64,000 nucleotides of DNA. Source: a virus. The notes under the pieces are model-generated. The model saw only the letters and a program-made list of their open reading frames with translations, did not search any database and was not told where the DNA came from. Within the stretch, counting starts at the first letter, position 1. Each line of letters opens with the position of its first letter. Made by a program: the position numbers and the translations under genes. The DNA lies in IMG/VR virus record IMGVR_UViG_3300045988_146982, positions 1-64,000 of that record; one strand, written 5' to 3'. Shown piece by piece: positions 2,676 to 12,799 of the stretch.

Positions 2676-3194
2676 CTAACCAACATAAGAGATATCATTT
2701 ATACGGTTCATCCACCCTCTCTTGAATTTGTTGTTCGCAGGACGCTTGCGGCATATATCCTCAATGAAGTCAAACCGTGCAATCTTAATCATGTCGAACA
2801 ACTCACGCGGGTTCTTGGCATTTACCGAAGCAATGGTCTTGGGACCTACAATGCCATCCTCCGTAACACCAAGCAGGCGTTGAGGAATCTTAATGCCATG
2901 AACACCGGATGCCCACACCCAGTCCACAAGAATATTTGCTACAGACTGATTCTGTATCAAATCAGCCTTCCATCTGTCCCAGTACATGGTCTTCAAGATT
3001 TCCGTCCATTCCTCTTTCGTGAGATTTTTCAATCTTTCAACTGTAGGCTTGGAATATCCTTTCTTTCGGCAATATGCCTCATAGGTTCCGATAGTCACAC
3101 CCATATTGGTAGCCCCTCCCAAATCGTCAGGGTCATTTACAAAACCGCCTTCCCACTTTAGGACAAACGGTGCAAGTTTTCTTACGTCAGCCAT
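2676..3194 (-). CDS. endolysin, GH108-type lysozyme with peptidoglycan-binding domain
   Basis: N-terminal [23 protein letters not shown] motif typical of Glyco_hydro_108; ~170 aa. Confidence 0.85.
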
Positions 3195-3579
3195 TCTTCT
3201 TTTCCTCCTTATCTTTAATTAATGTAGCTCTGCGTGGTGGAATACGACGGCCACATTCGCTGTCAGGCCTGTCACAACGGTTGTGCTCGGCATCTTTCAA
3301 TTGTAGTTCCAGCTCATGGCACTTATGAATCCATGTCAGCTTATCAGACTGTTCGTTACGAAGCTCAACGTATAACGCATCAATCTTGGCGTCACGCTGG
3401 GCGATACGTTCTTCCAGCCAATCAACCTGTTTACGCTCGTTCTCATCCTCCATTGAATCGGCGGACGCATCCTCCTTCCGCGCGTTCGTCTTGCGGTTTA
3501 CCCAGAACGTGACACCCCAGCGGACAGCCTCCAATCCCCCGAAAGCCCCGATTATAGCCAACCAGTCATTTAATTCCAT
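3187..3579 (-). CDS. membrane-anchored coiled-coil lysis-cassette protein (holin or i-spanin-like)
   Basis: N-terminal [24 protein letters not shown] followed by charged coiled coil; 8-nt overlap with endolysin start. Confidence 0.5.
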
Positions 3580-3707
3580 TCCGTCTATTGTTTATCTGAT
3601 TATAAATGTTATTTTTGCATGTGTTTTTCATAACCCAATAGACCTGGCGAGGTCGTTGCATAAGTTTTTCCCTGCTGTCCGAAAAGGCATGCAGGGATTT
3701 TTTTACA

Positions 3708-4220
3708 TTATAAACCTGCAACCAATATGGATGCATAAGTAGCTGACAACGCGGCTATCTCAATCCAAAACATCGGCTTGGTACGCAGGAAATCCGTTAT
3801 GATGCTGTCCGATACGTGGCGGGGCATCATCGCCAACGTATAAATAATGTAGACAAGCCATACCGTCAGGCACCACGGGCAATTACAGGCAACCCACAGC
3901 TGAGAGCCTGCGATACACAAGATAGCCCCGGCGGTATGCACCTTCCCTTCAAACTCATCCTTGAAGTTGGGGGCTGCACCAACCATCAGCATACCTATGC
4001 AGGACAAGAACGCCAAAAACTCGGTATCCGGTTTACTCACTTCCAAGATGGCAGGCATCAGCAGCCCGGCGGTAAGCCACGTCGTTACCATAAACCAATG
4101 CTTGTGTTCCAACTTATAGAACGTGGCACTGATGGAAGCAGGAACGCCCCCTTGTTTGACACATACCGCTGCCGTATAAGCAGCTATCACCAACATTGAT
4201 AAAATCACTAACCAAATCAT
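3708..4220 (-). CDS. multi-pass membrane protein (holin candidate)
   Basis: 170 aa with about 5 hydrophobic segments; first gene of the lysis cluster. Confidence 0.5.
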   Translation of the reverse strand: MIWLVILSMLVIAAYTAAVCVKQGGVPASISATFYKLEHKHWFMVTTWLTAGLLMPAILEVSKPDTEFLAFLSCIGMLMVGAAPNFKDEFEGKVHTAGAILCIAGSQLWVACNCPWCLTVWLVYIIYTLAMMPRHVSDSIITDFLRTKPMFWIEIAALSATYASILVAGL

Positions 4221-4232
4221 AACTTTTTATTT

Positions 4233-4859
4233 TTAAAGATTAAACACTAATTGTTCTGGATAACCCGCTGAATAGTCGAAGAACTTCACTTCCTCTGCTG
4301 TTTCCATTTGTTCGACCTGCGCCGCATGTTCGGCAGTTACATTATAGCATTGCAGGGCATACAGCTCCAACGCTGCAAGCATCTGCAATGCGGTATCTAC
4401 CGGAATAGTGTACTTCACTCCACCAAACCAAAGGTTGGTTTCCGGCTTTCCGGCATCTTTTTCTATGCCAATTGAATTGACCAGTCCGACACGGGTTGCT
4501 TTGTCCAGCCAAATACGATTACCGGCGAGCATGAACGAATTGACGGTCTCCGACCGGTCATAAGCAGCGATCTTGTTTAACATGAACTCTTTGAATACAG
4601 ACGTTTCATTACCGCCTGCAAACCCAAGAGCTTCAAATATAGTTTCCAATTCTTGGGTGGTCATTTCCTCATTCAATCCATACCCGTTTATTCGTTTCAC
4701 AAACTCATCGGCCGTCAGGTGTCCTGTCATTGTTGCCGTGTATGCTTCGTATCCGCCTTCAACCTCCCGGATACCAAAATTCACAGTGGTGTAGATTTGA
4801 TCCACCACTTTGTCAACCACCACTACCGATGGCTTCTCTTCATACTTTTTCTTCTCCAT
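4233..4859 (-). CDS. hypothetical protein downstream of DGR RT
   Basis: ORF 4233..4883; ATG 4859 (MEKKKYEE) avoids overlap with RT stop at 4867. Confidence 0.6.
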   Translation of the reverse strand: MEKKKYEEKPSVVVVDKVVDQIYTTVNFGIREVEGGYEAYTATMTGHLTADEFVKRINGYGLNEEMTTQELETIFEALGFAGGNETSVFKEFMLNKIAAYDRSETVNSFMLAGNRIWLDKATRVGLVNSIGIEKDAGKPETNLWFGGVKYTIPVDTALQMLAALELYALQCYNVTAEHAAQVEQMETAEEVKFFDYSAGYPEQLVFNL

Positions 4860-4866
4860 GATTGCG

Positions 4867-6306
4867 TTAATTTGGTAATACATAATTCAACTCTTTATAC
4901 ATTTTTCTATACCTCTTCCTGATACATACCTTTTCAAAATGACCTGATATGTAAAAGTATTTATAGAATCTGCTCCCGAAGAGCGATAATACCCATTTCC
5001 TGTGGCGGTAGGTCTTAAGCCCTTTGCAGAACCCAAGATAGCTATTCAGGACCGATTCGATGCGGGCGCAATCATTGGCGGTCAGCTCGGTTGTTTCAAT
5101 CATCCGGTTAAAGCCTGTGGCACGTTCCTTGAACCTTGCCAATGTGCGGTTGCTCAAATAACATCTTCCGGGCTTGATATACACGCCTACGAATAAAACC
5201 CCGTGCGACACAGGTTGCAGGTACCGCTTGTCCTTATGCAGCTTCAACAGCAATTTCCCGCCAAGAAATGCTTCAAGTTCCGGTATCACCCCCTGCAATG
5301 CTTTCAAGTCGTCGCATACCAACAGGAAATCGTCCACGAACCTCACATAATGGGAGTTCAACCGCCGTGTCTTCCATATTACATAACTGTCAAAGAAGGA
5401 CATGAGAAAATTGGCAAACAACTGCGTGGTCAGATTGCCTATCGGACCGCCTTTGCCCTCCCCGTTGCGAAGCAGGGATTTGTTTTCGGGCAACTGCCTC
5501 CACAAGGTCGTATCACCGTTGAACACGCAATCCTTTTCCGGGCTGTGCAATACAACCGCCCGTATCACCCTTAAAAGGATTTCCTTGTACCCGCCATGGT
5601 ATTTCCTTTTCGTGAAGCGCAGCAGCATGCCAAGCTGCAACACCCGGTCTATCGACATGAAGAACGAAACCAAATCGCCCTTGAACACCCATGCAGGTCT
5701 GCGGTAGCCGCAGGAAACAGCCTCCATGCCTTGCACAGCACTTAATACGGCTGTTCTGGTGCCGTAACCCTTACGGCAGTTATGTGACACGTTCCCCTGC
5801 GATTCGAACCGCTCTTCAAACAAAGGTTCAAGCCGCAGGCATATCCAATGGTGCACGATACGGTCACGGAAATTGGCAGCAAACACTTCCCTCAGTTTCG
5901 GGTATCTTACAAGAAAACAGGTGGATGTGGACGGTTTGTATGTGCCTGTCCACATCTCTACAGCCAAACAGACAATGTCTTCTTCGGCTATCTGCATATA
6001 CTCGACTGCCTGGCAGGAACTCATCTTCCCGCGTAAGCAGTCCTTATAAGCATCGATAACCGTATCCAGGAAACATTTGAAATCCGTTCCGTATGCTGCC
6101 ACCGCCCGCGCCCTATTACCGTTGTACTTGTTGTTGTTGCTAGTGTTGCCACTGGAGAAGTTCACATACCAACTGTTGTTGCGGCTGTTCTCGGTACTGG
6201 ACCAATACCACGAGGCGGAGACTTCTTGCGTATTTGCATCTTCGTTACTATGGCTTGCCACCATAGTAATACGCCCATTCAGAGGATTTCGCCGTACACT
6301 ATTCAT
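4867..6306 (-). CDS. DGR reverse transcriptase; the ORF includes the template repeat at its 5' end
   Basis: RT motifs GPIGNLTTQLFANFLMSFFD and RFVDDFLLV (YxDD-type); N-terminal AYKDCLRGK like DGR RTs; residues ~30-71 are TR-encoded. Confidence 0.9.
   Translation of the reverse strand: MNSVRRNPLNGRITMVASHSNEDANTQEVSASWYWSSTENSRNNSWYVNFSSGNTSNNNKYNGNRARAVAAYGTDFKCFLDTVIDAYKDCLRGKMSSCQAVEYMQIAEEDIVCLAVEMWTGTYKPSTSTCFLVRYPKLREVFAANFRDRIVHHWICLRLEPLFEERFESQGNVSHNCRKGYGTRTAVLSAVQGMEAVSCGYRRPAWVFKGDLVSFFMSIDRVLQLGMLLRFTKRKYHGGYKEILLRVIRAVVLHSPEKDCVFNGDTTLWRQLPENKSLLRNGEGKGGPIGNLTTQLFANFLMSFFDSYVIWKTRRLNSHYVRFVDDFLLVCDDLKALQGVIPELEAFLGGKLLLKLHKDKRYLQPVSHGVLFVGVYIKPGRCYLSNRTLARFKERATGFNRMIETTELTANDCARIESVLNSYLGFCKGLKTYRHRKWVLSLFGSRFYKYFYISGHFEKVCIRKRYRKMYKELNYVLPN
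6093..6220 (-). repeat. DGR template repeat (TR), 128 bp
   Basis: Aligns with 6832-6959 at offset 739: 116 identities, 12 mismatches, all at coding-strand adenines of this copy. Confidence 0.92.
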
Positions 6307-6767
6307 ACCTTCTCAGTATTAAAACCCTGACGGCTTGTGAAATCGCGCCATGCTGTCAACTGCGCAATCAATTTATCAGATTCGCTGCGGAGTTTGTTGC
6401 ACCTGTCTTTCGACAAGACACCGACACGCTCCAAAATCACAAAATAATTTCGGATAACAAACAGCAAAGACATTGCATTGCTGATGTACCAGCTCCGTTC
6501 TTCCCCTCTCGATTCGTTGGCAAGGGCAACCGATTTACCGACTTCCGACATATCGGAAATCATCAAATCGGTATACCGGCTCAGTTTTCGAGGGCAAGCC
6601 ATCATGATTTGCGCTATCGAAAACATCAGGTTGCTTGCCGCACGAAAGGCAGGAAGCTGGGCGGTCCCCCGTTTCTGTTTCTCTTTCGCGGCGTTGCTTC
6701 GGGCAATCTCTTCACCCGTAAGACAAACGCATTTTTGTTCCTTGTTTTCTGCTGTTTCCTGTTTCAT
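6303..6767 (-). CDS. avd: Avd-like DGR accessory variability determinant (helical-bundle candidate)
   Basis: Small basic helical ORF between target gene and TR/RT; stop TGA overlaps RT-ORF ATG (ATGA at 6303-6306). Confidence 0.65.
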   Translation of the reverse strand: MKQETAENKEQKCVCLTGEEIARSNAAKEKQKRGTAQLPAFRAASNLMFSIAQIMMACPRKLSRYTDLMISDMSEVGKSVALANESRGEERSWYISNAMSLLFVIRNYFVILERVGVLSKDRCNKLRSESDKLIAQLTAWRDFTSRQGFNTEKV

Positions 6768-6784
6768 ATTATAATCTGCTTCAA

Positions 6785-6808
6785 GGCACGCTCCAAAAGG
6801 AGCGCGCC
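6785..6808 (-). promoter_or_regulatory. hairpin with 4-nt loop just downstream of VR and the target stop
   Basis: GGCACGCTCC-AAAA-GGAGCGCGCC: 9-bp stem with one A.C mismatch, 7 nt past stop codon 6815-6817. Confidence 0.6.
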
Positions 6809-6814
6809 GAAAGG

Positions 6815-9800
6815 TTAAAGTTTAAAAGTGAATGCTGCCACCGCCCGCGCCCTATTACCGTAGCACTTGCCGTTGCCGCTAGTGTTGCCACTGGAGAAGC
6901 CCACATACCAACTGTTGCCGCGGCTGCCCTCGGTACTGGACCAATACCACGAGGCGGAGTGCAAGGCAAAAGGATTCGCACCGACATTGATATCCCTTAC
7001 CCGTTTCAGCATGTTTGCGAATAACGGCATCCGCGCTTCGCTTGACGGGTGTTCATCTGCATAGTCCGCTGTCGGGGCCGTGTTTATCTTGAAGCCACGG
7101 CTGCAATTGTGGAAATTGTAGATACGTGCCAATTCACCATTTGCCGGAAGATACCAATTGCCGCTGCGGTACTGCTCATGCACCGCTTCGGCTTTCGGCT
7201 CGTACAACCGGCACATATATGCTGCCGGATAATAGAACTGCCAGTACTTTTTTGCACCGGAATTGGAAGCAGCCAACTCTTTCATCGCCTTGTAAAGCTC
7301 TTCCATGGTTTCCGGCAATGGGACGTCCAGATAATTCAGCAGGATATGGTTGCAGTGCTCAATGATGATGTCCGTTTTCTCCTTCCCGTCAAAGTCATTG
7401 ACAGAACCTGATGTGAGTACGGCATATCCGTCATCCGTATCATCATCCAAGTAGTTATCTTCGTTGATGTAGTTGGAAGATGGTTTACCGTTATTTGGGT
7501 CGGTCGTTTGAGACAGCCCGGTGCTGTTTATATTCGGCATTGCGGTATCTGTCGCTGAAGCAATGCCGGCAGCATTCTGGATGGCATCCTCTATTTCCTG
7601 TGGAAATCCGTTGGTGGCGGAAGCCTCCGGGTACAATCCCCATGGCCAACTTACAACATTCGTATTTTCATCTACCATTATGATATCCTCGGCGGCATCT
7701 ATACGCAGTTCGTACTCGGTATCGCTCTTCTTTGTTCGCATAAATACCACGCCGGCGAGTGTCTTGCTAGGGTCATAGGCATCGTCAAATGTGCCGTCCG
7801 CGTAGGCGAAGTCCCCGATTTCGGGTATACGGTTGAAGAACCCGACCTGCTTGGTCTGTTTCATTACCCTGTTGTCCATCGTGGTTACTTCCACCGTCAC
7901 CGTGAATCTTTCCTTCAATGCCGCATCGCTCAATTTCTTTACATGAAGCACGCCGTTTACAGGATCGGTAAACCCGGCATAAAGCGAGGCTCCATCTTCG
8001 ATAGACCAGTTGACCGCAGCATGCCCGTCCACGATTTTCACGTTGTTGGCACTGGTAGGCAATACGCTGATATGGAATCCGGTGTATTCCCCAAGCGTGA
8101 AAATGTAGTTGTTGCCCTGTATGGATATGGAGTTGATGGCACGGACGGGATAACTGACATACAGCGGATTATCCGTGCTGTCAATATCCCCGTAGCGTCC
8201 TACCAGCTTCATTTTCTCGTCAAACGTGATATACCGGTCGCCAGATGCGTTCATCAGGGCTATGGACCCTGTCAGGACAGATTGTTTGTCACACAGGAAC
8301 ACAAGCATATCCGCCGTGACGGATTCCCATTCAACGGACTTGAACGTCACGCTGCTTAACTCTTCGGTCGCCCCGGTGTACAACTGCGCGGCGAATGCCC
8401 GGCTGTTGAACGCCCCGGCACCTTTCTGGTCGACGTAGACAGTTTGCAGGTTGCCTACGCCTTCGATTCCAGCCGTCTTCAATCCGGGCAGATCATCCAA
8501 ATGCAGCGCGGTCAACTTGGCGGGCAGCTCCAGGTTCTCCAGGCTTCCAGTCTTGGGAAGCGTCACGGTGGAAAGGGCGGTTCCCGACACACCAAGGCTT
8601 TCGGCACGTGTCAGCTTCGACAGGTCCAGTATACCGGCTAACGCTTCCACGCCGTTCAGGTTCAGGCGTTTCAGGTTTGGCGTGTTTATCTTAAAGCTGG
8701 AAGCGTTGAACTCGACAACCTTTATGCCTTCTTCACGTCCGGCGGAAAACTCCGTGAGCCGTTTTCCCGACAGGGCAAATTCCCCGGTCAACGGCTTGTC
8801 ACCCCAATTGCCGATGCTGCTGTAGCAGTCCGGTGCCAGGAGCGCGCAGGGTGTGTCGTTATCCGTTATAAATGATATGGTATAGTTTTCCCCGGCTTTG
8901 ACACGCTGCGGAAGTCCGTACGCTTTCCCGTCATTGTCAGCCCCAAAGCCCAATGACTGCCCGATAGCCACCGCCGGATAAATCCACATGAACGGACGCA
9001 GGTTAAAGGTATAAGTCGGCTGTTTGCCATCTTTTGTGTAGCGGCTGCGGAACGATATGGACTGCGAGCTTGCCACGCTGAAATCGCCATACGAACAGAA
9101 CGAGGAAAGATACACGGTACGCATCTTCAGGTACTGCATCTCACCTTGCAACTGGTCTCCGAGTGATTGCGAGATAGCCGATACGGAGGGTGGATTATAC
9201 AACCCTTCGTTTGCTTTTTGCTCTGCGTATTCGTAGAGTAGCCGTGCCGTCTCGTTATAGGCAACAGCCGGAAAATACTTTTGGATGCGGAAATAGAACT
9301 TCTCGAAACAGCCCATAGGGGAACCGCCTATTTTCGCCATTGCCGAAAATATCGCCTTCATGGTGGAGCGCAGCTCGGCAGGGAAAGCGAGTTCCATGAG
9401 GTTGTAGAACGTGTTCACTTCACCGTTCCAATAGTTCTTTCCGTTTGCGTTCAGGTCGTGTTCTTCCACATAATAGGGCTTGTCCTTGCGCCCGAGATTG
9501 TCGGTCAGGAAAATGGTATCCATGTCATCCTGGGCAAAACATATCAGGTGTGTCTTCGGGTCAAGGTATTGGTATGTGTTCTTTGCCCGGTTGTCACTGG
9601 CGGCAATCAGCTTCATCACCATCATTGTAAATCTGGCATCCGACAGGTTGTAATACTGTCCGATACCGGATTTGAACATTGCCACACGTGCGTTAATAAA
9701 CATCGCGTTCACCTCCTCCCATATCTGGTTCTGCACGGCTTCCGATTCATCGAACCCGGCAAGGTAATCGTTGAGCTGTGTGCGTAAGTTCAATTTCTCA

Positions 9801-12799
9801 TAACTGCCAACACCTGATTTGTTCACCCCGGCATCCACCCATGTGGAAGTAAGCCAGTCGTAACGGTACAGGTCGTACTGCTGCGCATCGCCTCCAGCCT
9901 TCGTCACCCAATACATCTTGTCTTTTTCAAGGTCTGCACCGGCAGCCTGTAGTTCGGCAAGTGTCCCCACAAACGCTTTCAGGCGGTTGGAACATTGATA
10001 TATGAAGTTATGTGCCGTTTGGAAATAACCAACCTGCTTTTCATTACCCAAATCAAAATCCCAAGACACAACCCCGTTATACTTCCATCCTTCCAATTCT
10101 CCCTCGTCGTCAATGGATGGCTCAACGTCTTCGTTCCACGGTACCTGGTGCAGCGTCAGTACGGCACCGTTGTCCGACCCTTCGATCATTAGGTAGTCGG
10201 GAAATACTTCTTTGTCATATCCGAATGTCGGCTTGTCGCCTTTTCCGGGTCCGAACGTTACCAAGCCGTAGAATACAGGTTCAGCCGATTCGTTTTCGCG
10301 GACAAACATCATGAACGGAAGTTGCTTGACGCATACACGGCATTTTTCATAACCACCCGTTTCCGTGATGGAATTACCACCAACCACTTCTTTCCACAAT
10401 TCGTGGTACAGGTCGCACGACCCTGCCTTGTGACTCTGCTGGGAGGAAGCCCAGTTCAGTTTCGCCACCAGCTTGGTGGCAGGCGGCACATCATCCGTCA
10501 ATTGGTAAGCCGCTCCACGGTCGGTTCCGTTTCCGTCAATCCAATTATAATCGCCAAAGCCGTACTGGTGGTTCCACAGGAAATATTTCTTTGATGACGA
10601 ACCCTGTCCTTTCACGCTCATTCCCTTAATCGTACCGGAGTGGGACGGGTCGCCTACAATATTAATCGTCAGGTCTCCTTTCTTCTTCGCCTGGTCAAGG
10701 ATATAAGGGAGTGAGCCGGTCCAGAGCATCGTGTTGTACTTCTGCGAAGCGCGCTCGTAGTTGATCAGGTTATTATACAATACGTCATTCTTGTCGCGGA
10801 ACGCAATCTTTTCGCTTACCTCCGTCATACTTGCCATATAATCCTGCCGTATGTCAGTGGCTGAAAGGGCTTTCTTATAGATGCGGATACCGTAGATATC
10901 CACATCAGAGGTTTCCGAGCCGATGCGGATACCGTGCGAGGTGAGCACCCCATTCACGCGCTGGATGAATTTGTCTGTTTCGGTATAGACGAACTCACGG
11001 TTGATGATTCCGTTGATGAACAGACGCACGTAACTGATACCATGCCCACCGAGGTTATAAATGATATTTACAGCCAGAAGGGTGCGGGTGTCCTCCTGGA
11101 ACATCACATCCTGGTCGGTGGGCGTACGGTGCCCAGTGGTCAGGAAGTACGCCTCTTGCGGACGGATTTCCAAGCCCAAGGGCAGTCCGTCGCTTGCGTA
11201 GGTGGAGCACATGCGGATAATCGGTTCTGCAAGGTCGGTCGCGTTGCGGGAAGCGTAGTCAATCTCAATGGTCAGTGAACTCTCCTGGGTCTGTCCGGTG
11301 GTTTCGGAATAGCTCTCGTAGTCAATATCCAGCGAGCATCCGGCAAGGACGCGCAGGCATTTGGCTCCGGCACTGTCAGTCTGCCATCCGTCCGTCAATA
11401 GTTCGAAGCCTTTCCATACGGACGGGACCTCCTCACCCGTTTCCTGGTTGACAATCCGCATCGGATTCTCCTCGGTGTTGGTGCGCTGTTTGGGGTTCAG
11501 CACGAAATCAGCCCCCTTGGTGGGAGAAAAGTTTTCGCTGTTGTCAATGGTGAAGAGAAGCTGCTGCCGCAGTTCCGTATCGCCGGAATAAAAGAGCATG
11601 CGCCCGTTCAGCGTGTCACCTGCGCCTTCTTCCGTTTCGACTTCGACCATCGCGCTCAGTTCATAGCGTGTGCGGTTGGCTGCCGCCGGAATGTCCTGCG
11701 TCAAATAGGCTTCTTGCAGCTTGCCATCCATCAGGCGAAATTGCACGGGCGTTGTTTCGGCTGATGGATTATAAACCGCCCACTCGAAAAACTTCACCGT
11801 ATTCCAGTTGGTCAGGTCACGCTGTATGCCGTTCAACGCCATCAATATGCCCGTTTCCCCTTCTTCGGCTACCATGATTTGCGAAACCAAATCATCGGTC
11901 TGCACTGACGAACCGCTGCTCAGGTAAGCTGTGACGGTATAGACGCCATGCTTCTTGGGGCTGTCAATCTCCAGAATATAGGGTGTTTCCGTATAGACGT
12001 TCGTACCGAGGGCACGGGTAAAGGTCCGGTCGTAGTCCTTACCGGTAACACGTACCGTAAGGTCTTTGGCAATGTTGCCGGTGACATAGTAAGACAATGG
12101 GATACGCTCGCCGTCAAAAGGATTTTCCCATGTGGCGGCAAAGTCAAGCGCAAGGCTTGTCACCGTGATGGAGTAACTGACGTATGTGGTTGACAGTTCC
12201 GTGGTCTCACCGCGGCAGATGATACGGACAGATTGCTGCCCGAGCGTCAGGTAATCGCCGATAGGGACTTCCACCCAGTCGGATGAATCAGCCGGGTAGG
12301 ATTCAATCTTCACCGTCCCTTTGGTGCTCCAGTTGCTTGCGCCTTCCACTTTGGTCTGTATCGTCAGTACGCCCATTTCGCCAGTATCGGTGGTCTGCTG
12401 CGTGGCAGGGTTGAATACCTGCGAGGTAAAACGGAGCTTGACACTCAATTTTCTTGATGTCGTGATGATGGTACGCTCCGAACCGTTCACAAGGTTCAGG
12501 ATATAGCTGGTTGCCGAACTCGATCCGTCGCCACTTGGCAAGGCAATATCAAACAGGACGTTCGTTGCGAATGCTTCCGGGTTGCTGTTCCATTCATTAT
12601 AACGTTCCTCATCGGCAAAGCCGCGAAGGTGGTAGTTCCCGTCTGTTTCCTTGTCCGTTGTCCGGGACAGATACCCGGCTTTGCTCTTGAACTGCTTTTT
12701 GATGAACTCTTCCACACGGGAACCTTTATACATTTCTGAAGACGTGCTCCACGGCACTTCTATGCTTTCAATCTCTTTATCCAGTTTTATCTTTGCCAT
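6815..12799 (-). CDS. 1994-aa tail fibre / receptor-binding protein, DGR target with C-terminal DUF1566-like (C-type-lectin-fold) variable domain
   Basis: C-terminus GNWYLPANGELARIY...SASWYWSSTEGSRGNSWYVGFSSGNTSGNGKCYGNRARAVAAFTFKL carries the VR; LRR-like segment mid-protein. Confidence 0.9.
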   Translation of the reverse strand: MAKIKLDKEIESIEVPWSTSSEMYKGSRVEEFIKKQFKSKAGYLSRTTDKETDGNYHLRGFADEERYNEWNSNPEAFATNVLFDIALPSGDGSSSATSYILNLVNGSERTIITTSRKLSVKLRFTSQVFNPATQQTTDTGEMGVLTIQTKVEGASNWSTKGTVKIESYPADSSDWVEVPIGDYLTLGQQSVRIICRGETTELSTTYVSYSITVTSLALDFAATWENPFDGERIPLSYYVTGNIAKDLTVRVTGKDYDRTFTRALGTNVYTETPYILEIDSPKKHGVYTVTAYLSSGSSVQTDDLVSQIMVAEEGETGILMALNGIQRDLTNWNTVKFFEWAVYNPSAETTPVQFRLMDGKLQEAYLTQDIPAAANRTRYELSAMVEVETEEGAGDTLNGRMLFYSGDTELRQQLLFTIDNSENFSPTKGADFVLNPKQRTNTEENPMRIVNQETGEEVPSVWKGFELLTDGWQTDSAGAKCLRVLAGCSLDIDYESYSETTGQTQESSLTIEIDYASRNATDLAEPIIRMCSTYASDGLPLGLEIRPQEAYFLTTGHRTPTDQDVMFQEDTRTLLAVNIIYNLGGHGISYVRLFINGIINREFVYTETDKFIQRVNGVLTSHGIRIGSETSDVDIYGIRIYKKALSATDIRQDYMASMTEVSEKIAFRDKNDVLYNNLINYERASQKYNTMLWTGSLPYILDQAKKKGDLTINIVGDPSHSGTIKGMSVKGQGSSSKKYFLWNHQYGFGDYNWIDGNGTDRGAAYQLTDDVPPATKLVAKLNWASSQQSHKAGSCDLYHELWKEVVGGNSITETGGYEKCRVCVKQLPFMMFVRENESAEPVFYGLVTFGPGKGDKPTFGYDKEVFPDYLMIEGSDNGAVLTLHQVPWNEDVEPSIDDEGELEGWKYNGVVSWDFDLGNEKQVGYFQTAHNFIYQCSNRLKAFVGTLAELQAAGADLEKDKMYWVTKAGGDAQQYDLYRYDWLTSTWVDAGVNKSGVGSYEKLNLRTQLNDYLAGFDESEAVQNQIWEEVNAMFINARVAMFKSGIGQYYNLSDARFTMMVMKLIAASDNRAKNTYQYLDPKTHLICFAQDDMDTIFLTDNLGRKDKPYYVEEHDLNANGKNYWNGEVNTFYNLMELAFPAELRSTMKAIFSAMAKIGGSPMGCFEKFYFRIQKYFPAVAYNETARLLYEYAEQKANEGLYNPPSVSAISQSLGDQLQGEMQYLKMRTVYLSSFCSYGDFSVASSQSISFRSRYTKDGKQPTYTFNLRPFMWIYPAVAIGQSLGFGADNDGKAYGLPQRVKAGENYTISFITDNDTPCALLAPDCYSSIGNWGDKPLTGEFALSGKRLTEFSAGREEGIKVVEFNASSFKINTPNLKRLNLNGVEALAGILDLSKLTRAESLGVSGTALSTVTLPKTGSLENLELPAKLTALHLDDLPGLKTAGIEGVGNLQTVYVDQKGAGAFNSRAFAAQLYTGATEELSSVTFKSVEWESVTADMLVFLCDKQSVLTGSIALMNASGDRYITFDEKMKLVGRYGDIDSTDNPLYVSYPVRAINSISIQGNNYIFTLGEYTGFHISVLPTSANNVKIVDGHAAVNWSIEDGASLYAGFTDPVNGVLHVKKLSDAALKERFTVTVEVTTMDNRVMKQTKQVGFFNRIPEIGDFAYADGTFDDAYDPSKTLAGVVFMRTKKSDTEYELRIDAAEDIIMVDENTNVVSWPWGLYPEASATNGFPQEIEDAIQNAAGIASATDTAMPNINSTGLSQTTDPNNGKPSSNYINEDNYLDDDTDDGYAVLTSGSVNDFDGKEKTDIIIEHCNHILLNYLDVPLPETMEELYKAMKELAASNSGAKKYWQFYYPAAYMCRLYEPKAEAVHEQYRSGNWYLPANGELARIYNFHNCSRGFKINTAPTADYADEHPSSEARMPLFANMLKRVRDINVGANPFALHSASWYWSSTEGSRGNSWYVGFSSGNTSGNGKCYGNRARAVAAFTFKL
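6832..6959 (-). repeat. DGR variable repeat (VR)
   Basis: Counterpart of the TR; GC-rich invariant 3' end (coding sense) GGGCGCGGGCGGTGGCAGCAT resembles an IMH. Confidence 0.92.

Follow-up and report, generated by a model that had tools for sequence, protein, structure and literature searches.

Can the template repeat (TR) of a diversity-generating retroelement (DGR) be translated as part of the retroelement's own reverse transcriptase (RT), and if so, which feature of this arrangement is under selection? The question is raised by a viral sequence, IMG/VR record IMGVR_UViG_3300045988_146982, of which positions 1-64,000 were analysed (a stretch of 64,000 nucleotides (nt), hereafter the window). 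All DGR features of the window lie on the minus strand, in the order of a 1994-amino-acid (aa) target open reading frame (ORF) carrying the variable repeat (VR), a GC-rich hairpin, a 154-aa Avd-like ORF and a 479-codon RT ORF. A first-pass annotation, made from the letters alone, had described the RT ORF as joined to avd by an ATGA overlap and as running through the entire TR in the frame that the VR uses in the target; both descriptions were confirmed, at the coordinates given in Table 1. The comparison with related loci indicates that this frame is conserved, and selected for, in a large clade of Bacteroidales phage retroelements.

An active retroelement

The TR and VR differ at 13 positions, every one of them at a TR adenine. 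Among phages with 94-99% identical RTs, the VRs differ mainly at TR-adenine positions, and the TRs of these phages are 1-5 positions away from the TR of the window. This pattern of variation argues both that the DGR is active and that its layout yields a working RT, and the cassette, as judged by its repeats and relatives, is an active DGR of a Bacteroidales phage. The C-terminus of the target matches Lcl_C (PF07603) with an E-value of 8.5e-5, at a score under the Pfam gathering cut-off. The RT ORF itself matches two Pfam families, RVT_1 at residues 138-375 and Lcl_C at residues 26-69.

The best match of the RT in the PDB is the Bordetella DGR enzyme bRT (8ub7), both by sequence (E 1.3e-24) and by predicted fold (Foldseek E 1e-16, template modelling (TM) score 0.80 normalised on the target). 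In the alignment of the RT PIGNLTTQLFAN to bRT PIGSLTSQLFAN, query residues 81-248 correspond to bRT residues 16-171, which places Met1 of bRT at about residue 66 of the RT ORF and indicates that the RT body starts immediately behind the TR. For the 154-aa ORF, Pfam and PHROG give no direct match. A profile built from it and its relatives, however, matches syntenic ORFs that hit the Pfam family bAvd (PF22296; hhalign 95.7%, E 1e-8), and also PDB entry 2gsc, a 128-aa protein deposited as uncharacterised (E 0.005); together these matches justify the label "Avd-like". A megablast search of the cassette against GenBank phages returned nothing, and relatives were found there by tblastn alone. The related loci used here comprise IMG/VR viral contigs and metagenome-assembled genomes of Bacteroidales (Parabacteroides, Bacteroidaceae, Prevotella and Paludibacteraceae).

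A reading frame conserved across lineages

For the comparison, 113 related loci were fetched and dereplicated at 85% RT identity, giving 26 lineages with at least 47% RT identity to the window and a detectable TR/VR pair, and 22 lineages at 30-43%. The first-pass annotation had suggested comparing homologous DGRs for an open frame across the TR and for the junction with avd, and the outcome bears it out. In 25 of the 26 closer lineages the VR frame of the TR is also the RT frame and is open from upstream of the TR; at 30-43% identity the same holds for 12 of 22 lineages, with eight out of frame and two in frame with an intervening stop. Across the in-frame lineages, an in-frame ATG lies between -46 and +31 nt from the avd stop, and the ATGA overlap itself recurs in lineages L001-L010, L012, L017, L019, L021, L031, L072 and L076.

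Protein databases give a similar picture. The 120 best protein clusters (52-99% identity), which include NCBI entries named "reverse transcriptase", are nearly all 456-566 aa long and cover 93-100% of the query, and 110 of them carry a TR-type peptide (N..NNNNK.N) within the RT protein. The same layout is found in a cultured virus, Bacteroides phage BS-TP1 (PQ571274), in which the RT annotated in GenBank has 493 aa, includes the TR and overlaps the gene of a "four helix bundle protein" by 14 nt. Taken as a comparative result, the frame is conserved in a large Bacteroidales clade, and this is not a matter of chance. In two GC-rich lineages at about 30% RT identity, a TR-like peptide is likewise found in the RT frame; the position of the TR in this frame was confirmed for L076, whereas L074 yielded no TR/VR pair. 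Its occurrence may thus extend beyond Bacteroidales.

A sign of selection on the frame comes from a hairpin of variable length in the leader, the stretch of the RT ORF that precedes the TR. The hairpin was delimited by RNA anchors and therefore independently of any ORF call. This inner hairpin is 12, 15, 18, 21, 24, 27, 30, 72 or 81 nt long, a multiple of three in 24 of 24 lineages, and it holds 0, 7 and 15 stops in frames 0, +1 and +2, respectively; at the off-frame density, a stop-free frame would arise with a probability of about 1e-5. To produce nine length classes, the hairpin must have changed in length eight times or more without ever losing the frame, for which the naive expectation is (1/3)^8, a figure that becomes less extreme given the relatedness of the lineages. 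In addition, IMG/VR was scanned with the RNA loop motif alone, a 15-mer. Most matches were due to chance and only 12 held the full element, new lineages among them; all 12 hairpins are divisible by three, and the ORFs reach 450-483 codons into the RT wherever the contig is long enough. Translation through the leader accounts for multiples of three, for which RNA structure alone gives no reason. On this comparative evidence, the reading frame through the leader is under selection. A three-frame stop count over the whole leader (0/92/77) was set aside in favour of the hairpin test, as it is partly circular: the leader had been defined from the first ATG after a stop.

A structured RNA within the coding sequence

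The leader folds of the different lineages share one structure, in which an outer 7-bp stem encloses the variable inner hairpin and a 12-nt internal loop on the 3' side. Covariation was measured on a 22-lineage alignment of the two anchor segments. Standard pairs fill 97.7% of the cells, compared with 24-41% when the partner strand is slid; double-sided changes occur at 6 pairs (shuffle mean 3.0), and the covariation score of 0.437 was reached by none of 500 shuffles (0.120 in these). One stem pair is seen as GC, AU, UA and CG. A scan of positions 5800-6900 of the window against Rfam returned no family.

The imprint of this structure is visible in the codons that overlie it. Within the conserved peptide motif NPLNGR(F/L/I)T, the Arg codon and those following it covary with the 3' strand of the stem, and the third positions of the Asn, Gly and Thr codons are fixed; in the "SYEDA" block, non-synonymous variation (D/V/G) coexists with fixed third positions. 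In the Pro and Leu codons of NPLNGR most variation is synonymous, an ambiguous hint of selection on the peptide. An earlier reading of third-position variation in NPLNGR as clean peptide selection was withdrawn in view of the covarying Arg and following codons and the RNA-type pattern of SYEDA. Most sequence conservation of the leader thus acts at the RNA level. Moreover, the same element is intergenic in L041 (L041:3738-3988), L061, L064, L067, L077, L097 and L109, whose TRs are non-coding; there it consists of AAUGGGC, an outer stem of 5 bp that shows compensatory changes, and ACUAUC-loop-AUAGU. The leader element is therefore older than the ORF that overprints it.

Split and fused reading frames

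Among the close lineages, a single one has an RT that is not fused to leader and TR (L028, IMGVR_UViG_3300035520_001173, 51% RT identity). Here a separate 113-aa ORF (L028:3633-3983) covers leader and TR; it is linked to avd by an ATGA overlap, and its end lies 8 nt ahead of the ATG from which the RT itself starts. The leader RNA motif is retained. The 113-aa ORF looks like a natural split version of the 479-codon ORF. Since translation over leader and TR is kept there without fusion to the RT, the passage of ribosomes, as a coupling relay, rather than the peptide would be the selected feature; coming from a single lineage, this is suggestive only. A different rearrangement is seen in L038 (IMGVR_UViG_3300029592_000184), where 287 stop-free codons precede the RT in its frame (L038:3140-4001) and a diversified VR-like peptide (YVYMSYGSVFTFDKTYAG...) is joined straight to post-TR sequence, with no TR/VR pair or avd between. 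This looks like a dead DGR in which recombination between VR and TR deleted avd and TR and fused the target to the RT.

The N-terminal extension was also assessed as a protein. In an AlphaFold2 model computed with a 67-sequence alignment, the mean predicted local distance difference test (pLDDT) score is 83.5, residues 1-72 score in the 30s without secondary structure, and the fold begins at a helix formed by residues 74-91. Most simply, the tail of about 72 residues would be a disordered and tolerated passenger, with a sequence dictated by RNA structure and by the TR/VR relationship, and not by a function of the peptide. The first-pass annotation had gone further and proposed that the RT needs this copy of the target's lectin-fold tip. 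The low pLDDT of residues 1-72, the separate ATG of the L028 enzyme, sister RTs of about 394 aa with a non-coding TR and the GTG at codon 69 all speak against such a need. Its suggestion that the extension acts in cis fares no better, as the conserved positions are largely explained by an RNA structure that is likewise kept where the element is non-coding.

Where does translation begin?

It had further been noted that no start codon separates the end of the TR from the RT motif AYKDC. This is correct for codons 72-86, where ATG, GTG and TTG are all absent and the remaining candidates are CTG (codon 80) and ATC (codon 84); not until codon 95 (6024-6022) does the ORF have another ATG. What had been overlooked is that the TR itself holds two GTG codons in frame, at codon 48 (6165-6163) and codon 69; the latter begins 9 nt before the last base (6094) of unbroken TR/VR identity. 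Between the end of the TR and the AYxDC motif, none of 24 lineages has an ATG in frame. Together with the conserved open frame and its upkeep over nine hairpin lengths, this makes it the best reading, as originally claimed, that the TR is translated within the RT ORF.

The Val codon at the TR end is GTG in 14 of 25 lineages, GTC in 9, GTT in 1 and absent in 1. A second Val, in a "VPxxF" motif located 4-6 codons after the TR, occurs in a subclade with the members L016, L017, L019, L020, L022, L023, L084, L086 and L091, in which the TR-end Val is mostly GTC or GTT. The GTG that encodes the VPxxF Val could reflect either a conserved alternative start or a constraint on the RNA. L027 and L110 are without a suitable GTG before the RT motif.

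A model of coupled translation and its rivals

The available data are compatible with a model in which the RT frame has grown in the upstream direction until it spans the entire stretch up to avd, so that coupled ribosomes make an extended RT; this account is judged to be the probable one, with considerable room for doubt. Specifically, ribosomes that finish avd would restart at the overlapping ATG at 6306, unwind the structured leader and the TR and then enter the RT body, and the product would be an RT with an N-terminal tail of some 72 residues, probably disordered. The selected trait would be an unbroken frame by which ribosomes reach an RT body that has no separate ATG, and the reason for the layout would lie in the position of this startless body behind structured, GC-rich RNA. 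We infer that translation does begin at the ATG at 6306 and that the layout exists for the sake of coupling to avd. Several points weigh against this account. The lineages are phylogenetically related, and the counts given above overstate their independence. The rationale for coupling is a general one, namely that initiation in Bacteroidota proceeds without use of Shine-Dalgarno sequences and is sensitive to RNA structure. Most lineages (about 22 of 24) have a GTG 11-20 codons before the RT motif, which in the window is codon 69, and a start at this codon would give an RT of canonical length, as Met1 of bRT aligns only a few residues upstream of it. The VPxxF Val is encoded by GTG in every member seen of its subclade. 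A shorter RT isoform, or even the main product, could thus start at an in-frame GTG, and long and short isoforms could both be present.

Taken to its end, the last point becomes a rival explanation in which the functional RT starts internally, at the GTG of codon 69 here and at a post-TR GTG elsewhere, and the upstream frame adds little or nothing to the enzyme. This is unlikely, yet it has real attractions: in addition to the GTG codons just described, the extension is predicted to be disordered, the enzyme would have an N-terminus that matches bRT, and RTs of sister clades begin 10-18 residues before the motif. However, it leaves the stop-free upstream frame, the multiple-of-three hairpin and the ATG at the avd stop unexplained, and no single GTG position is conserved, the TR-end Val being GTC, GTT or absent in 11 of 25 lineages and a suitable GTG missing altogether from L027 and L110. 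With two to three Val codons in the stretch, a GTG is estimated to occur by chance in about three quarters of the lineages, and the surroundings of the codon-69 GTG are GC-rich. Less probable still is a functional extension, in which the NPLNGR-type motif, the lectin-tip copy or both would tether the RT to Avd, RNA or target, or would serve autoregulation. Across 67 proteins, G11 and R12 never vary and N10 and T14 hardly do, the synonymous variation of the Pro and Leu codons points the same way, and the N-terminal subdomain of bRT contacts Avd (10.1101/2023.10.23.563531). The codon patterns described above nevertheless place most of this conservation in the RNA: the Arg and following codons covary with the stem, the fixed third positions of Asn, Gly, Thr and SYEDA are RNA-level constraints, and the AAUGGGC...ACU-hairpin-AGU element, compensatory stem changes included, is also conserved where it is intergenic. 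In addition, the pLDDT of the tail is about 30, the corresponding peptide is detached from the RT in L028, and the TR-encoded part is dictated by the VR of the target. Finally, it is highly improbable that the long ORF is a product of chance or annotation, with a TR whose VR frame is bound to be open and which shares the phase of the RT by luck. A TR is necessarily stop-free in the VR frame, gene callers favour long ORFs, and the chance of the layout at this locus alone amounts to a few per cent (a rough estimate from 1/3 for the frame, about 0.13 for 28 stop-free leader codons, and the placement of the ATG). The comparative data remove this doubt, in that the layout is conserved across dozens of diverged lineages with frame-preserving indels and an ATG at the avd stop.

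If coupled translation is indeed how the extended RT is made, the same RNA would serve as message and as template. A tentative idea, on balance doubtful, is that either avd-coupled ribosomes melt leader and TR or a complex of RT and Avd clamps them. By occupying the 5' part of the sequence that encodes the RT, such a complex would exert negative feedback on RT synthesis and bring about a switch to the synthesis of complementary DNA (cDNA). A bolder and speculative variant lets the leader or lectin-tip peptide itself take part. A partial parallel exists in group II introns, where LtrA binds domain IVa, an RNA that overlaps the start of its own coding sequence, so that binding and translation could exclude each other. 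The parallel serves as an analogy for competition between message and template only.

Comparison with known retroelements

The cassette resembles the DGR of phage BPP-1 in the order of target with VR, Avd, TR and RT, in its adenine-specific TR/VR differences and its Avd-like protein, in an RT that is closest to bRT by sequence and fold, and in having structured RNA upstream of the TR; a candidate counterpart of the BPP-1 hairpin lies downstream of the VR. Phage DGR hairpins have a stem of 7-10 bp and a 4-nt GRNA loop and lie 4-34 bp after the VR (PMC3240598); the loop of the present hairpin is TTTT/AAAA, not GRNA. The first-pass annotation had stated that in textbook DGRs the TR is non-coding and located between avd and RT. 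This holds for BPP-1, in which the interval from avd to brt holds the TR and a 140-nt spacer (Sp), both non-coding, Sp wraps around bRT and acts as the primer for cDNA, and the 3' segment of avd is essential and pairs with Sp (10.1101/2023.10.23.563531). As a general statement it needs amending, because overlaps of the TR with the 5' end of annotated RT ORFs were already listed as DiGReF "group 3" by Schillinger et al. in 2012 (PMC3521204), who concluded that the arrangement was irrelevant.

Unlike BPP-1, the present cassette has no non-coding spacer: the RT ORF covers everything from the avd stop onwards, including leader and TR, and the conserved RNA element of this clade lies upstream of the TR. 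No conserved Sp-like structure was found in the first ~150 nt after the TR, where RNAalifold gave no consensus and the aligned segments showed no covariation. As a further candidate, Sp-like or cPRT-Stop-like pairing of the loop or the TR 3' end with the 5' coding region of the RT was considered and dropped, as the RNAduplex matches were scattered and several of them fell on the conserved FRDR codons. A more distant relative from the out-of-frame clade, L041 (about 40% RT identity), shares with the window a homologous RT, an Avd, an Lcl_C-type VR and the leader RNA topology directly upstream of the TR. Its layout is different: 251 nt separate the end of avd from the RT, both leader and TR fall within this intergenic gap, and the 394-aa RT has a dedicated ATG located 41 nt past the TR.

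The cassette fits the 5' case of DiGReF "group 3", and both GenBank PQ571274 and public gene calls show the long ORF. The "group 3" types are annotation classes only, assigned without testing whether the frame is conserved, which start codon is used, how the RNA folds or whether it is translated. A 2024 pipeline paper regarded TR/RT overlap in three atypically long repeats as inconsistent with the definition of a DGR and added an overlap filter to its tool; large DGR surveys and a study of Bacteroides DGRs do not discuss overlap of TR and RT ORF. In the literature searched, no analysis of a translated TR beyond DiGReF "group 3" was found, nor were the conserved frame, the leader RNA element or an L028-type split.

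Implications

The mechanism of DGRs is understood almost entirely from BPP-1, in which the TR and the flanking RNA that wraps the RT are non-coding. The present analysis indicates that a large clade of DGRs from human-gut and rumen Bacteroidales phages instead embeds the leader element and the TR in the RT ORF, under selection. The same nucleotides would thereby answer to three constraints, namely RNA structure, a frame free of stops, and a cDNA template for the ligand-binding tip of the target. The use of one RNA molecule for translation probably competes with its use as a template, and such competition suggests autoregulation; a message-template switch, if true, would be a form of regulation that has no place in the BPP-1 paradigm. 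The clade also departs from BPP-1 in its accessory RNA, with an upstream stem-loop and no obvious Sp. On the practical side, this clade may be mishandled by pipelines that search for DGRs and either filter out overlaps of TR and RT or presume the TR to be intergenic, and the availability of cultured BS-TP1 with the same layout makes these ideas open to experiment.

Layout of the cassette and neighbouring genes

The features of the DGR are collected in Table 1.

Table 1. Coordinates of the retroelement features within the window
Feature	Coordinates	Strand	Remarks
Target gene, 1994-aa ORF	12799..6815	-	VR forms the last ~45 codons
VR	6830..6959	-	130 nt; 3' end of target gene
GC-rich inverted repeat, 10-bp stem and 4-nt loop	6785..6808	-	Candidate target-recognition hairpin, 22 nt downstream of VR
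Avd-like accessory gene, 154 aa	6303..6767	-	TGA stop 6305-6303 overlaps RT start
ATGA stop/start overlap of avd and RT ORF	6303..6306	-	ATG 6306-6304 and TGA 6305-6303
RT ORF, 479 codons	4867..6306	-	Leader, codons 1-28; TR-encoded part, ~codons 29-72; RT body from ~codon 73
Leader RNA element inside RT ORF	6228..6274	-	Shared folds and covariation
Outer stem of leader element	6274-6268 GCGUAUU with 6234-6228 AAUACGC	-	7 bp
Inner hairpin of leader element	6267-6247	-	Closed by ACU...AGU; variable length
Internal loop of leader element, AACGAAGAUGCA	6246-6235	-	Conserved, 12 nt; consensus (U/A)ACGA(A/U)GNUGCA
TR	6091..6220	-	130 nt, 37 adenines; read in RT frame
In-frame GTG, codon 69	6100..6102	-	Candidate alternative start near TR 3' end; RT of canonical length

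Downstream of the DGR, the minus strand encodes an endolysin with GH108 and PG_binding_3 domains (2676-3194). It is preceded by two small ORFs without a Pfam match, one of which (3708-4220) looks hydrophobic by eye, and the region 2676-4220 fits a phage lysis module and hence a phage or prophage context. Between this region and the retroelement, a 216-aa ORF on the minus strand (4233-4883) overlaps the 3' end of the RT ORF by 17 nt and has no Pfam match; in BS-TP1, the gene that occupies the matching place behind the RT carries the annotation of a DUF4376 domain protein.

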